Source of the DNA: Eledone cirrhosa
Lineage: Eukaryota
Length of the DNA: 64,000 bases
NCBI GenBank assembly: GCA_964016885.1
Contig: OZ024761.1
Coordinates: 7,378,001-7,442,000 of the forward strand
Reading direction: 5' to 3'
The position numbers and the translations under genes were made by a program. Below, piece after piece: positions 168 through 59,517 of this stretch (within the stretch, counting starts at the first letter, position 1; each line of letters starts with the position of its first letter). A model generated the notes under the pieces. It was not told where the DNA came from. It ran no database searches and saw nothing but the letters and a program-made list of their open reading frames with translations.

Positions 168-266
168 AAGTAGTTCCACAAATGTTTCACCTTATGCGGA
201 TCCTCAGCTCGCATAAAGTGAAACATTTGTTCTCTGTATGGTGAACTAACTGTTGTGGAACTACTT
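168..266. mobile_element. Fold-back PLE-like terminus with degenerate hammerhead core
   Basis: Inverted arms AAGTAGTTCCACA/TGTGGAACTACTT and ACAAATGTTTCAC/GTGAAACATTTGT. The minus strand reads CTGAGGA-tccgcataaggt-GAAA-catttg-TG, a non-cleavable triplet. Next to a TA tract. Confidence 0.5.
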
Positions 267-1560
267 TATATATATATATATATATACACACACACACACA
301 CACACACACACACAAATAAATAAAAGACAGAGTTAATAACTTCTATATATGAGAGAGAGAGAATTTTAAAAAATGGTAGAATAATGGATGGATGTGCAAC
401 AAGGAAACGATCCTAGTGTTATGGAAATATGGCAGAGAGACTGGAAAGAAAATATATAATGTGGCAGAGAGAGAGAGAGAGACAGATATAAAACAGTAGC
501 TTGAGAGAGATAAGAAAGGAAGGAAGAGACGGTGTAAGGAAAGAGTGAAAAAAAAAATCATAATAAAAGGTGTAATAATAAATGTTAGATAAAGATAGCT
601 TCAAATAATAGCAGAATAAATCAAAATAATGACGAGTAAAATAAGATTTTAAAATAAATTAACGATATAAATATGGCTAATTCTGGATCGGTACGCTGTG
701 ATTGCTGACGGGCACCTTGCCAGTTAAAATGGATTTAATTAATTGGGAAAAGGAAAAAGAAGAGAAATTTGCTGTTTGTCCTCGTTTTAAAAATCATAAA
801 ATGGCCCAGCAACAACTCTGTTGTATGTAAGAAGCAGACAGGACACAACAGATGTGTGAAGGAGGACTACTTTCTTCTATATCTATAAAATGTTGTTGTT
901 TTTTTCGGTCTTGTTACAACATCGTCATTTAACAATGGCAAATCACCGCGCTAACGAAGAACTGCTAGGAATATGAAAGTGTTAAATTTTTCCTTCAAAC
1001 CGCAAACACATCGGTCCGACAACACAGAGGACATTTGTCTACAGATAATAGTTGAGAACACTGGGTAAATTATCCTTAGAGACGGGGAGAATGAACAGAG
1101 AGACTTCGCATACATAAAAGAAAAAAAAAAGACATGGCGGTCATATTTGGAACGATTTGATAATTATATCTCTGCTGGGTTCTGACATCGAGTAGCTCCC
1201 ACCTGGTTCCTTGACACGCTAAAAACAACAGCCATATCTCTCTATAGTCTTTAAAAAACAGGTGGTGGGGGAAGGACACAAATTAGATAATTTAGTCATA
1301 AATAAGCCTCCCATTCCATAGGAAGGCCACGGATGGATTGTCTTTCTTTGATCATTAAGGTCCGTGAAATCCAGACCCATGTTTGACAAAAAATAACAGT
1401 TATATATGCCTAAACTGTCCTTAAAAATTGAGGAACGACCACAAATAATCTAATCATACGTGATTGTCAGAAGTGGAAAGCCTCTAATAATTTAAGGTCC
1501 CTCAAAACTGGACCTAGGTCTAACAAAGGATGTCATCATGTTAAAAAAAAGGGGGCAATG

Positions 1561-2282
1561 TAACTAAATTATATAATTTAGGGCACTACCATGCTATCAG
1601 AAGTGAAAGTTTCGTCAACCTTCTCAATCGTAAACATCGTTTATTTCCGTATTACCACGCGTTATTTTAATAAAGCATATCGATGTAAGTGGAGTTACTT
1701 AAATGAAAATATAGGGGGCCCTTAAAAGGGCCAAATTAGAAAACAAGTCATGGTTATCAAATAAATTGGATTTAATCATTTATATTTTCATAGTCATGGT
1801 TATCAATTTCATGTATAGGGTTGGTGAAAAAAATGTGATAACCATATATTTGTTTCCTAATTTGGCCCTTTTAAGGGCCACCTATATTTTCATTTAAGTT
1901 AACTCCACTGTTGGTGAAAATGACTTGTTTTCTACATTGATAACCATGACTATGAAAATATAAATGATTAAATCCAATTTATTTGATAACTATGACTTGT
2001 TTTCTAATTTGGCCCTTAAAAGGGCCACCTATATTTTCATTTAAGTAACTCCACTTACATCGATATGCTTTATTAAAATAACTGTTTCTACTTTAGGCAC
2101 AAGGCCAGCAAATACCCAGTGCATTACTGGTACTTTATTTTATCGACCCGGTAAGGATGAAAGGCAAAGTCAACCTCGGCGGGACGCGTGGTAATACGGA
2201 AATAAACGATGTTTACGATTGAGAAGGTTGACGAAACTTTCACTTTTGACAGCTAACAGCATGGTGGTGCCTAATTTAGTTA
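1561..2282. repeat. Long inverted repeat (fold-back); right arm interrupted by a SINE
   Basis: The left arm (~1561-1807) is the reverse complement of ~1936-2081 plus 2185-2282. Confidence 0.85.
2082..2184 (-). mobile_element. 5'-truncated tRNA-derived SINE
   Basis: Matches the 3' part of the full SINE copies at 5169-5346 and 19529-19707. Confidence 0.85.
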
Positions 2283-2879
2283 TAAATATCATCCCCCGTT
2301 CCACTCGACGCGATGGTTCAGGCTGTATTGGCTTTGATAATTAAGGTCCGTCGAAACTGGACCCAAGTCTGTCCTGTGGCTAAACAAACAAGACTACCAT
2401 CATCTAACAACAATGGTGATAACATGTTCTGAAAGCAAAGCTGCTAACATTGAAAAAGGAAGTATTAAATCGTTAGCTAAAAATGTCACAACAACGCAGA
2501 CACATCATTTTAATATTCTTCCTCTAATTTGAACTAAAATCTCTACTTAACCCCACCAACCTGTCAATGTATACACACACCACCGCTACAATCATCATCA
2601 TCTTAACAGCAGCCAAATCTGTCATAAATTAAACGCACATCCCGCTTTATAAATATATCCATATTATATGGGAGGAAGCCGCCTATTGTGATCACTTTAA
2701 GTAACAATAACTGTTTGATAACGTTAAACAAACACACACTCTTCTTATTTTTTAATAGGATAATGTATGTAGGACAGCCGCTTACTGTGATCACTTTAGT
2801 ACGGAAGCATTCAGACAATAACTAGCTGATTACATTAAACAAAGTACGTTAGAAGAGAGAGGTAGATCCGGATGCAGTA

Positions 2880-3130
2880 AAGGCTCGAACATGTCAGCCG
2901 TGGTTTATAAAAGATTTAAAGATGGCGATTGTGACACATCCGACAAGCCTCGTTCGGGAAGACGACCCACTCTAAATGAGACTGTTATATCAGATCCATG
3001 TCGAAGTACCCTAGATTTAGCGCATCATTTTATCGTGTCATGTTCAACTATCCACGAACATCTCAAACAATTTCGGAAACCATGAAAAGAAGGAATTTGG
3101 GTTCCACATAAGCTTACGCTTCAGAACCGA
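2880..3130 (+). pseudogene. Mariner transposase N-terminal fragment
   Basis: Translates to YKRFKDGD..DKPRSGRRP…STIHEHLKQ…*KEGIWVPHKLT: HTH region plus a WVPHEL-like motif, with an internal stop. Confidence 0.85.
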
Positions 3131-3194
3131 ACAGGTTCCAGCACGTCATTTCCCCTCTTCTTCCGCTTCCACTTACATATCTATTTATAATATA

Positions 3195-4087
3195 CTAGCA
3201 GTAAAGCCCGGCGTTGCTCGGGGTCGCTCAGTAGCTGTATTAAAGTTACAATGTTAAGTTTCTTTCTTGGCTTAAAAACTGTAGTGTCTACTGTGCAGAC
3301 TTGCATGTGGTGTTTTTTATTAATATTCCCTCAACCAACAATATGCCTTATGAAGTTAAGAAAACATAACGATAACCCGAATGTTATAACAAAAGAGGAT
3401 GCTGGGGATAAAGACTGCACTGGTTATTTATTAACAAAGATCGAAAATGTAAACACGGCAACGCAGAGAAAAACATTAGCGTAACCAAATTATCAGTTAT
3501 GTCTGTCTGCACGACTGTCTGTCTGCACGCCTATATCACCTCTCTGCACGACTGTCTGTCTGCACGCCTATATCACCTCTCTGCACGACTATCTGTCTGC
3601 ACGCCTAACGAAATTTACAGATACATATATTTTATATAAACTTATATAATTTTTGCTTTTTTTTACGAAATATTTGCTTGTTTTAAGTAGTTTTTAAATA
3701 GACTTGTTTTCAAGTAAAAATATTGTTTTAAAAGGCTTGTTTTACGTAGTCTTTAAATCGTGTATTGTGTTAATGTCATTTTAAACGCTGAGAAAGCCAG
3801 CGTAATTTTTTTAATTTTTGCACGCAGACGCTCAATGTAAACAGAACAAAGGGAAATAACTGATCACTTACGCTAAAAAATCGATACATTATATTCGATT
3901 TCGTCACATAGGGTGGGTCAATTTGAAATTTTTTTTTTCCCGATGTCTTCGCTAGGGCTCAATGTACAAGTATAGCAACTTCGGTGCAATTCCGTGAGAG
4001 ATTCTAAGAGGAGATGTGTGCCAAAAATAGATAGACAGACAGACAACCACAGTTTTATATATATATATATATATATATATATATAGA
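3195..4087 (-). mobile_element. Non-autonomous Helitron-like element
   Basis: On the minus strand it starts TC(TA)n…GTCTGTCTGTCT and ends with hairpin CCCGAGCAACGCCGGG followed by CTAG, between host A and T. Internal ~38-bp tandem repeats at 3500-3606. Confidence 0.75.
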
Positions 4088-57992: not shown

Positions 57993-58940
57993 AAAATAAA
58001 TAGATGAATGAAAAAAGAACAAAGAAATATACTTGATAGTGACCCCAATATTTTACGTTGAGAAATAGAGAAAAATCCAAACCATAATTACTTAGAATGT
58101 GAAGTTGGTGAAAATCGTCAAAATATTGCCTCCGAGTTATAAACCCCTTCACCATTTTTACCATCGATTTTTTAGTCTCATATTCAAGTATATTTGATTA
58201 ATTAACCCTTTCGATAGTCACCCAGCCTGGTTCTAAGAACCACACATTTTAACAGCTTCCTATTTAACCTTTACCATTCTAACATGCCATATCCAGCCAG
58301 AATTCTTTCACCTCTTTCTTTCCAAACTGGCCATAACTAGCCAGATATTTATGTTAAGGTATTGTTATCTCAAAATAATTAACATAAAAATCTTGTAGAT
58401 TCGATATTGTGAGATAATTATGTAAGATTACCACAAAAATAGTATATGTAGAGTAATAGTTTCTACTTTTGGCACAAGGCCAGCAATTACCCCAGTGCAT
58501 TACTGGTGCTTTATTTTATCGACCCCGTAAGGATAAAATCAAAGTTAACATGGGTAGGATTTGAACCCAGAACACAAAGGGTCATAACTATGCCACACTA
58601 CCGATACTGCCAACCCATTACCCTTATATATAATATATAGAGAGTAATGTAAATGCTAAAGGGTTGAATTAATATCTTCCAACATAACTTGATATAAAAA
58701 ACACCATTGTCACTGTTGTTTTAATATCCACTTTCCCTGCTAGCAATGGTTGGATATTAGTTTATGTTATAATTACTTATCATACTAATGAAATAATTAA
58801 TTTTAGCAAATGCCTTAAAATTTTTCATTAATTAATTAAAATACAGTTTATTTTATAAGATTATGGGAAATGTTAAGTGATGGATTGACATTAAGAAGCA
58901 TTGGTAAAATTTGTGCTATATATATATATATATATATATA

Positions 58941-59100
58941 CAGATAAAATTCTGATATAACAAATTTTTCAGTATAACAAAATTTGTTCAATCCCCGGCC
59001 ACACGCTCGATGTATTAAGTTGATCTCGTTATAAAGAATTTTTCATTACAATGAATATTTTTTTATACCCCGTGAATTTCGCTATAATGGAATTTCACTG
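58941..59100. mobile_element. TA-flanked MITE
   Basis: TA-CAGATAAAATTC…GAATTTCACTG-TA imperfect TIRs. Confidence 0.6.
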
Positions 59101-59158
59101 TATATATATATATATATACGATATTAATAAATGGAAACTATATTTATAAAACCATATT

Positions 59159-59223
59159 TATTTCATTATACATATTTCAGGGATACCACATTAAATTATG
59201 GTATGCCTTCATCAGACAAAATA
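59159..59223 (-). ncRNA. Hammerhead ribozyme motif (left arm of palindrome, sense to unk pre-mRNA)
   Basis: Minus strand: tattttgt-CTGATGA-aggcataccata(atttaa)tgtggtatccct-GAAA-t(atgt)a-TA/atgaaata. Confidence 0.72.
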
Positions 59224-59300
59224 CAATATATAACAGTTTTACAAAAATGGTTGTATTTTAAAGGGTACGTCAAACCTATTTGTAAAACTGTTATATATTG

Positions 59301-59365
59301 TATTTTGTCTGATGAAGGTATGCCATAATTTAATGTGGTATCCCTGAAATATGTATAATGAAATA
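59301..59365 (+). ncRNA. Hammerhead ribozyme motif (right arm of palindrome)
   Basis: tattttgt-CTGATGA(59309-59315)-aggtatgccata(atttaa)tgtggtatccct-GAAA(59346-59349)-t(atgt)a-TA/atgaaata; predicted cleavage after 59357. Confidence 0.72.
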
Positions 59366-59517
59366 AATATGGTTTTATAAATATAGTTTCCATTTATTAA
59401 TATCATATATCTACTCCAAAAATTTGTCGAGTACTTTATATCAGTTATAAAAATATTTACTTGTTGTATCCCAACAACTTTAAATAGAACTTTTGCATAT
59501 ATATATATATATATAAA

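Follow-up and report, generated by a model that had tools for sequence, protein, structure and literature searches.

Fold-back islands at TA microsatellites of Eledone cirrhosa as probable stubs of hammerhead-bearing Penelope-like element ends

Type I hammerhead ribozymes accompany the Penelope-like elements (PLEs) of metazoans, with thousands of such motifs per genome; a palindromic stem III is typical of them, a U3-A8 core is a known variant, and monomers cleave barely or not detectably (PMC4209133). The same 2014 study, by Cervera and de la Pena, reported pairs of hammerheads on opposite strands 100-700 bp apart. Craig et al. (2021) described PLEs with an inverted truncated copy and a tail, as well as hammerhead-bearing PLEs of the Hydra clade that target TA repeats; the octopus family Hydra-1_Obim falls in this clade (Files S1 and S2), and the consensus of Penelope-13_HM includes an inverted copy and hammerheads on both strands (PMC8557442). 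Palindromes at head-to-head junctions were described by Arkhipova et al. in 2013 (PMC3846280). In vitro, the Poseidon element of Anolis cuts AT-rich DNA and extends both strands, using two start sites that set the tail, and hammerhead cleavage is dispensable (Frangieh et al. 2024, PMC11167929). PLEs make up 6.83% of the genome of Octopus vulgaris, in 190 families, and the words "hammerhead" and "ribozyme" are absent from the main text of that paper (PMC13282606). Here we analyzed a window of 64,000 nt from Eledone cirrhosa (GCA_964016885.1, contig OZ024761.1, positions 7,378,001 to 7,442,000 of the forward strand) in which short fold-back islands, each built of two inverted arms, lie along TA microsatellites and several carry hammerhead cores. 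We put at roughly 85% the probability that these islands are dead insertions of several PLE families, heavily 5'-truncated so that their hammerhead-bearing 3' ends remain, laid down in TA as a long arm and a short inverted arm.

This architecture is known, and the gain is one of new families and perhaps of a density record, not of a new system. Indeed, a model-made annotation of the same window (hereafter the original prediction) had proposed that the self-sequestering geometry, in which the inverted arm supplies an antisense copy of the ribozyme, might be undescribed in this lineage, yet it was already in print in 2014 (PMC4209133) and 2021 (PMC8557442). The islands share with endonuclease-positive PLE insertions (PMC8557442, PMC3846280) the head-to-head inverted ends, the palindromic junctions, the extension of one arm and the microsatellite targets that hide target duplications; they differ in that only the last 100-350 nt are present and in that the one verified recurring tail measures 62-70 nt instead of 30-40 nt. 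The islands and Hydra-clade PLEs have in common the (TA)n target and a hammerhead near the 3' end whose stem III is short and paired and whose cut site is often a U, whereas no Hydra open reading frame (ORF) was seen here and the likeness rests on hammerhead resemblance. With the metazoan PLE hammerheads of PMC4209133, the motifs have in common the core, the extra nucleotide before stem II, the U3-A8 variant and a distribution over many divergent families, mostly as solo motifs with some opposite-strand pairs. In contrast to those motifs, several of ours feature a long helix II, with up to 58 nt separating the core halves, or a helix I in two parts, and their local density is above that implied by the published counts. 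Cutting of AT-rich DNA, extension of both strands and two start sites, shown for Anolis Poseidon in that clade and species, are proposed here by analogy. Finally, animal retrozymes without long terminal repeats (PMC7229834; bioRxiv 2026.07.22.740005) are likewise ORF-less, carry a type I hammerhead and are likely PLE-derived, but they are direct tandem repeats expressed as circles, whereas the islands are single or inverted stubs.

The window has about 35% G+C and contains very long (TA)n arrays, copies of short interspersed elements (SINEs) and fragments of long interspersed elements. An inverted-repeat scan of the unmasked sequence was dominated by TA arrays. Fold-backs were searched by self-BLAST with 9,751 nt of microsatellite and simple repeat masked, and inverted alignments spanning less than 1.5 kb were considered. 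They were observed directly: 29 such alignments were obtained from the window, whereas each of 10 shuffles gave 0-1, and all 12 islands named in the original prediction (168, 4309, 4991, 12854, 13276, 37516, 46605, 48478, 51469, 54446, 57787 and 59120) were recovered among them. The remaining alignments fall in a minisatellite (25.2-25.8 kb), in SINE-related palindromes (26.3 and 49.4-49.7 kb), in a repeat (51755) and in a nested pair (1569-2285). Across the 12 islands, arms measure 21-142 nt (the shortest being those of 168 and 57787) with 82-97% identity, and spacers measure 0-290 nt. The description of the islands as mostly unrelated was overstated: the motifs first placed at 4527, 59159 and 59301 belong to one family, islands 13276 and 57787 form another, and the motifs at 46708 and 47357 look related.

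Contact with TA is equally an observed property of these ends. An arm end lay within 10 nt of (TA)>=4, i.e., a run of at least four units, in 6 of the 12 islands (null mean 0.42; 0 of 3000 simulations reached 6) and within 25 nt in 8 of 12 (null mean 0.92; 0 of 3000 reached 8); for comparison, 2 of 14 SINE ends were within 10 nt of TA. The enrichment expected of islands placed in or next to (TA)n was thus found in the window, with the exception of islands 57787 (417 nt), 37516 (97 nt) and 13276 (95 nt, counted from the arm end), which lie more than 50 nt from TA. These figures may be inflated, as the islands may have been picked in part for their contact with TA; this worry is tempered by the fact that the 12 named islands make up most of the non-satellite alignments in the unbiased list. 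Conversely, 4 of 95 TA flanks had an inverted copy (shuffle mean 0.07), so that most TA tracts are without a flush fold-back.

Hammerhead motifs are named here by their C3 position and, where given, strand: the nine full or near-full cores first placed at 4527, 12895, 13398, 15788, 18946, 46708, 47357, 59159 and 59301 become 4577-, 12936-, 13402+, 15825, 18950, 46714+, 47363+, 59215- and 59309+. A strict descriptor found five type I motifs with a perfect core (4577-, 12936-, 46714+, 59215- and 59309+), against a shuffle mean of 0.33 and a maximum of 1 (30 shuffles). With a relaxed descriptor, six of the nine reached a score of at least 13 (shuffle mean 0.2, maximum 2; 40 shuffles), the sixth being 47363+, which has one core change. 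The excess over shuffled sequence anticipated for the motifs was therefore present in the window. The U3-A8 motif 15825 is borderline (score 11; shuffle mean 0.88, maximum 3), 18950 is within shuffle noise (score 8), and 13402 was not recovered by the relaxed descriptor, its two arms bearing different core lesions. The claim of nine cores consequently stands for six. Two half cores had also been proposed: the one at ~23630 is real (CTGATGA on the minus strand, 23630-23636, cut by TA), and the one at 5362 was not confirmed, with only GAAACAATTGTA, two upstream core changes and no stem II. We additionally identified two features missed earlier: a pair of hammerheads, one on each arm of island 51469, and a degenerate core (207-). 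Stem III is palindromic or wobble-palindromic in six of the seven best-scoring motifs. On visual comparison, 12936, 46714, 47363 and 51547 look like the Hydra-clade motifs in File S2 of Craig et al., with a 2-4-bp stem III and U/A at the cut site. Folding z-scores of isolated motifs were mixed (-4.0, -2.2, -2.1, +0.5 and -3.7).

One could suppose that AT-rich hairpins match the core by chance. At a score of at least 8 the shuffles are comparable to the window (mean 5.4 and maximum 9, against 11), and the Rfam hammerhead models gave no match at gathering score, nor at E<=10 in two local scans; TA arrays dominated the unmasked E-value scan, for which 150 of 661 matches are listed. The excess of 6 over 0.2 at a score of at least 13, the repetition of motifs at the family level and the compensatory changes in their stems make this explanation extremely improbable overall. 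It is refuted for the six strong motifs and may still hold for 18950, 13402, 207 and 5362.

The family of 4577 offers the best view of repetition. Its copy at 4486-4655 (minus strand) is a single arm with an intact type I core: C3 at 4577, GAAA at 4544-4541, a palindromic TATATA, H17 at 4533, and a helix I with a proximal part of 8 bp and a distal part of 10 bp. Island 59120 (59121-59403) carries two intact cores head to head, 59215- (H17 59167) and 59309+ (H17 59357), on arms that are 96% identical, with its left end at (TA)9. The 4577, 59215 and 59309 arms align with a mean column identity of 87%. Multi-copy status was directly observed for this one family: four sequencing runs mapped on 4290-4655 gave, among others, 6,018 contigs (X1) and 26,474 reads (X7), nearly all on 4486-4655; summed contig depth is not taken as copy number, and X7 is reduced-representation data. 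A TA run follows the 3' end of the family in 108 reads, and the cut site of 4577 lies 47 nt from the TA end. The strand switches in three of the five joints listed, at positions that differ. Within ~40 nt on the upstream side of the core, depth in X1 declines roughly five-fold, which either truncation or upstream divergence could cause. Two other organisms gave few records (7 in X5 and 48 in X6), too thin to date the family, and the family pattern had 0 matches in the viral and bacterial collections.

The signature of PLE insertion was observed in a pair of islands devoid of a convincing hammerhead. In island 48478 (48422-48590) and in 52128 (52058-52175), a second and smaller fold-back of the same family that had not been listed before and has arms of 15-17 nt, the short arm stops at one and the same internal position, give or take a few bases, and gives way to (TA)n ((TA)8 in 48478). 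The long arm continues 62-70 nt further as a tail, of ~62 nt on the left arm of 48478 and of 70 nt in 52128. This fixed short-arm stop with a one-arm tail is a PLE signature. Similarly, the 135-nt extension of 13276 is common to 57787, where both arms reach the family end. Two side observations concern such extensions. Those at 4800-4990 and 48422-48477 end in a GGTTACTC..TGAAC-like motif before TA, in an alignment that is non-significant (14 of 300 shuffles reach its score). The segments 8824-8886 and 59425-59486 form a TA-flanked stub that is 87% alike, which is either the tail of the 59120 family or the 3' end of another element.

These structures could be explained by dual priming. The parent endonuclease/reverse transcriptase would cut both strands within (TA)n, and each DNA end would prime reverse transcription at either of two start sites close to the RNA's 3' end. 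Both complementary DNA (cDNA) copies would stop early and be joined head to head via a short match or a palindrome, yielding the order TA, short inverted arm, spacer, long arm, tail, TA, with the hammerhead as a passenger of the copied end. The outward orientation of the cores in islands 168, 12854, 13276, 46605, 51469 and 59120 corresponds to two 3' ends placed head to head. The mechanism described for the Anolis element in vitro, with its two start sites and extension of both strands, matches 48478 and 52128 (PMC11167929). We hold dual priming to be the most likely route, at slightly better than even odds. Alternatively, PLE ends of the same origin may have acquired the inverted arm by copy-back, in which the cDNA folds on itself and is copied backwards; a variant, self-priming on antisense RNA, was proposed in PMC3846280. 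In islands 46605, 12854 and 168, core orientation assigns the central spacer to the same arm that extends further before reaching TA; the short arm thus lies nested within the long one, as copy-back would have it. Island 51469 is centered on a palindrome, and the arms of 59120 share a loop II absent from 4577. Such nested cases are few, however, their extensions are without confirmation from a second copy, and the recurrence of the short-arm end at one internal site in two insertions is more simply explained by a fixed second start site. We consider copy-back a real possibility that falls well short of even odds.

A different proposal is that the fold-backs are mobile non-autonomous mini-elements, retrozyme-like or resembling miniature inverted-repeat transposable elements (MITEs), that move as palindromic units. 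The islands are indeed short, ORF-less and of multiple families, animal retrozymes have been argued to derive from PLE ends (bioRxiv 2026.07.22.740005), and islands 4309, 37516 and 54446 have neither a core nor a second copy in the window. Yet direct tandem hammerhead units, the retrozyme trait, were not found at the islands, and copies of the same family were either dispersed or inverted. The geometry moreover varies within families (4577 has one arm and 59120 two; 13276 differs from 57787, and 48478 from 52128), and opposite-strand joints lie at different places in other copies. A fixed MITE-like structure was thus not encountered in the three families with two copies, the islands 4309, 37516 and 54446 being single-copy in the window. 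This makes mobility as palindromic units improbable, and dead insertion stubs are a better description of the islands than a class of mobile "mini-elements".

Read-through transcription is predicted to yield an RNA in which the hammerhead is paired with the inverted arm. In all seven units folded within their islands, the GAA has a probability of at most 0.01 of being unpaired, and freeing the core from the island fold would cost 13-34 kcal/mol. The suggestion that the inversion makes the element fold as double-stranded RNA is hence supported as a folding prediction and not as a function. Selection might have retained the arm to silence the ribozyme or to feed double-stranded RNA to host silencing, for which the pairing just described is what one would expect. 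This is nevertheless very improbable: hammerhead-less ends fold back equally (5 of 12), 4 of the 9 claimed motifs (4527, 15788, 18946 and 47357 in the first numbering) lie outside any fold-back, published monomers show no detectable cleavage (PMC4209133), and cleavage is dispensable for insertion in vitro (PMC11167929). Because core-less ends fold back too and these four motifs are without an arm, masking is likely a by-product of insertion, not a selected off-switch.

The window also contains a broken fragment of a PLE gene. At 36918-37515 (plus strand), a frameshifted C-terminal segment with a Cys linker and a GIY-YIG domain ends at the core-less hairpin 37516 (37516-37652, 97% arms, no hammerhead). 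The Cys linker identifies it as Neptune-type by the definition of PMC8557442. It has 346 relatives at E<=0.001, is 45% identical to the 883-aa protein P0075, falls with GIY-YIG clusters in the Atlas, and both reverse transcriptase and GIY-YIG domains were found in four of six scanned relatives. A word-index protein search with the GIY-YIG fragment returned nothing, another search returned only pseudoscorpion proteins, and a Pfam scan of four ORFs of the window assigned families to 0 of 4. In five PLE loci of another animal (L001-L005), which are decayed Neptune-type ends on host-derived contigs of a metagenome collection, a minimal hammerhead lies ~150-250 nt behind the ORF; a motif like 18950 follows the ORF end in three, a half motif in one, and one locus ends early. 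Two further loci (L006 and L007) come from gut metagenomes and show 33% identity. Within the window, a 28-codon frame at 15838-15925 (minus strand) ends just before the U3-A8 hammerhead 15825; it is reminiscent of a Penelope/Poseidon C-terminus.

The anatomy of the motifs, their multi-copy status, the TA ends, the tail and the PLE fragment all point to ORF-less termini of several PLE families that target TA, as first proposed; the link between hammerhead islands and a PLE ORF is, for its part, inferred. Besides the silence of Rfam, several results weigh against this reading. Within the window, none of the hammerhead islands connects to a PLE ORF, and the PLE fragment adjoins a core-less hairpin; tblastn with 150 relatives gave no match in the window other than 36918-37515, and no relative of the 28-codon frame appeared in the word-index protein search. 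The motif of Hydra-1_Obim had no match in the window and four island motifs are absent from the supplement of Craig et al. (PMC8557442), so placement in the Hydra clade would go by resemblance. No convincing core was found in 5 of 12 fold-backs (4309, 4991, 37516, 48478 and 54446). The tail of 62-70 nt is longer than the published 30-40 bp, and alignment gave no significant assignment for the 46605 extension or the 59120 spacer. Stem covariation was borne out in part: among 30 helix pairs compared over the three window arms of the 4577 family, two change on both sides, five change on one side with the pair kept, one breaks (in one row) and 22 are invariant, but these arms represent two independent insertions only. 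Of the eight paired positions that vary in reads, three keep the pair, two match the partner change of the 59309 type, and three break it or are ambiguous. None of the 34 variant rows touches the 13 core positions, an invariance expected by chance in ~10% of cases given that 27 of 170 family positions vary.

Intact cores occur once per 13 kb in this one window, and the density of about one motif per 7 kb first proposed requires the weak motifs; the density alone may be unreported. Published counts, set against genome sizes, amount to one hammerhead per 70-170 kb or sparser. They include 235 Rfam hammerheads in the giant squid (PMC6962438), more than 6,000 hammerheads in Acropora and 120,000 retrozyme copies in the axolotl (PMC7229834), and ~9,000 hammerheads in Xenopus (PMC4209133). 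The density here is possibly 5-10 times these genome averages, as judged from a single window and with a different descriptor. We found no genome-wide octopus hammerhead census in the literature searched, which did not extend to subscription papers and Repbase. Tentatively, and with doubt outweighing belief, one may imagine a genome with ~10^5 intact hammerheads invisible to Rfam and thousands of stubs in which each family records its own second start site, 60-70 nt inward from the end of the RNA. If so, it would be a ready map for choosing between dual priming and copy-back in PLE insertion. The formation of inverted PLE ends and the role of the hammerhead are stated open questions (PMC8557442, PMC11167929), and a genome of short stubs from many families would allow counts of arm nesting, start sites and breakpoints.

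The other islands and stubs vary in preservation. In island 168 (168-266), the hammerhead on the minus arm is degenerate, with CTGAGGA at 207 and a G at position 17, and the right arm meets (TA)10. Island 12854 (12854-13133) carries an intact Hydra-like core on its minus arm (C3 12936, H17=U 12899), and its short arm begins within stem II, as does that of 46605 (46605-46970), whose plus arm has an intact core with a long stem II (C3 46714, H17 46790) and whose right extension leads to (TA)8. The hammerhead related to 46714, at 47345-47450 (plus strand), has the core change CTGAAGT, a 13-bp helix I, a palindromic CAATTG and no inverted arm. Island 13276 (13269-13580) has damaged hammerheads on both arms (13402+ and 13312-), and its right-arm 3' extension runs to (TA)11; in its relative 57787 (57787-57992), not near TA, the long arm begins within a decayed stem II. 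Each arm of 51469 (51469-51645) has a hammerhead, 51547- with an intact core and 51566+ with AAAA for GAAA, and the center is a short palindrome. Two TA-flanked stubs have a single motif: 15575-15925 (minus strand), with the U3-A8 variant (C3 15825) and a stem III of CGTACG, and 18845-19063 (plus strand), with a minimal hammerhead candidate (C3 18950) whose score is within noise and whose layout matches that of the motifs behind the Neptune-type ORFs in L003-L005. The half hammerhead at 23620-23700 (minus strand; CTGATGA at 23636-23630) is cut off by (TA)11. Among the fold-backs without a hammerhead, 4309 (4306-4455) has zero spacer and a right arm extended by ~40 nt before CA/TA, and 54446 (54446-54581) lies beside TA/TG; a PLE origin is only inferred for both. 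The 4309 hairpin had only low-complexity matches in read and contig mapping, a result of little weight as coverage also missed its own locus. Two strings were rejected as hammerheads. One, CTGACGA..GAAA-CACA-TC at 40041 (plus strand), has no stem II and reflects either a hammerhead that suffered a deletion or coincidence; the other, TTGAGAA..GAAA, lies near 2220.

Other repeats were also identified. The nested inverted repeats at 1569-2285 have inner arms of 147 nt (97%) and outer arms of ~100 nt (86%), and a piece of a SINE lies in between; an Rfam Histone3 match at 1859-1904 (37 bits) is probably just the GGCCC hairpin of this repeat. The SINE of the window is presumably that of Octopus; its motifs were absent from the 4 files searched of one supplement on mollusc SINEs. 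A palindrome of two joined SINE ends with 34-nt arms lies at 26343-26412. Minisatellite arrays occupy 21709-22699, 23072-23572, 25100-25900 and 49400-49770, the last two with internal inversions. Finally, the SINE insertions at 5154-5363 and 19510-19726 have clear target duplications of 16-18 bp, and the first, with its 16-bp duplication, splits fold-back 4991 (4991-5502, 113-nt arms, 92%), indicating that the SINE is younger than the fold-back.

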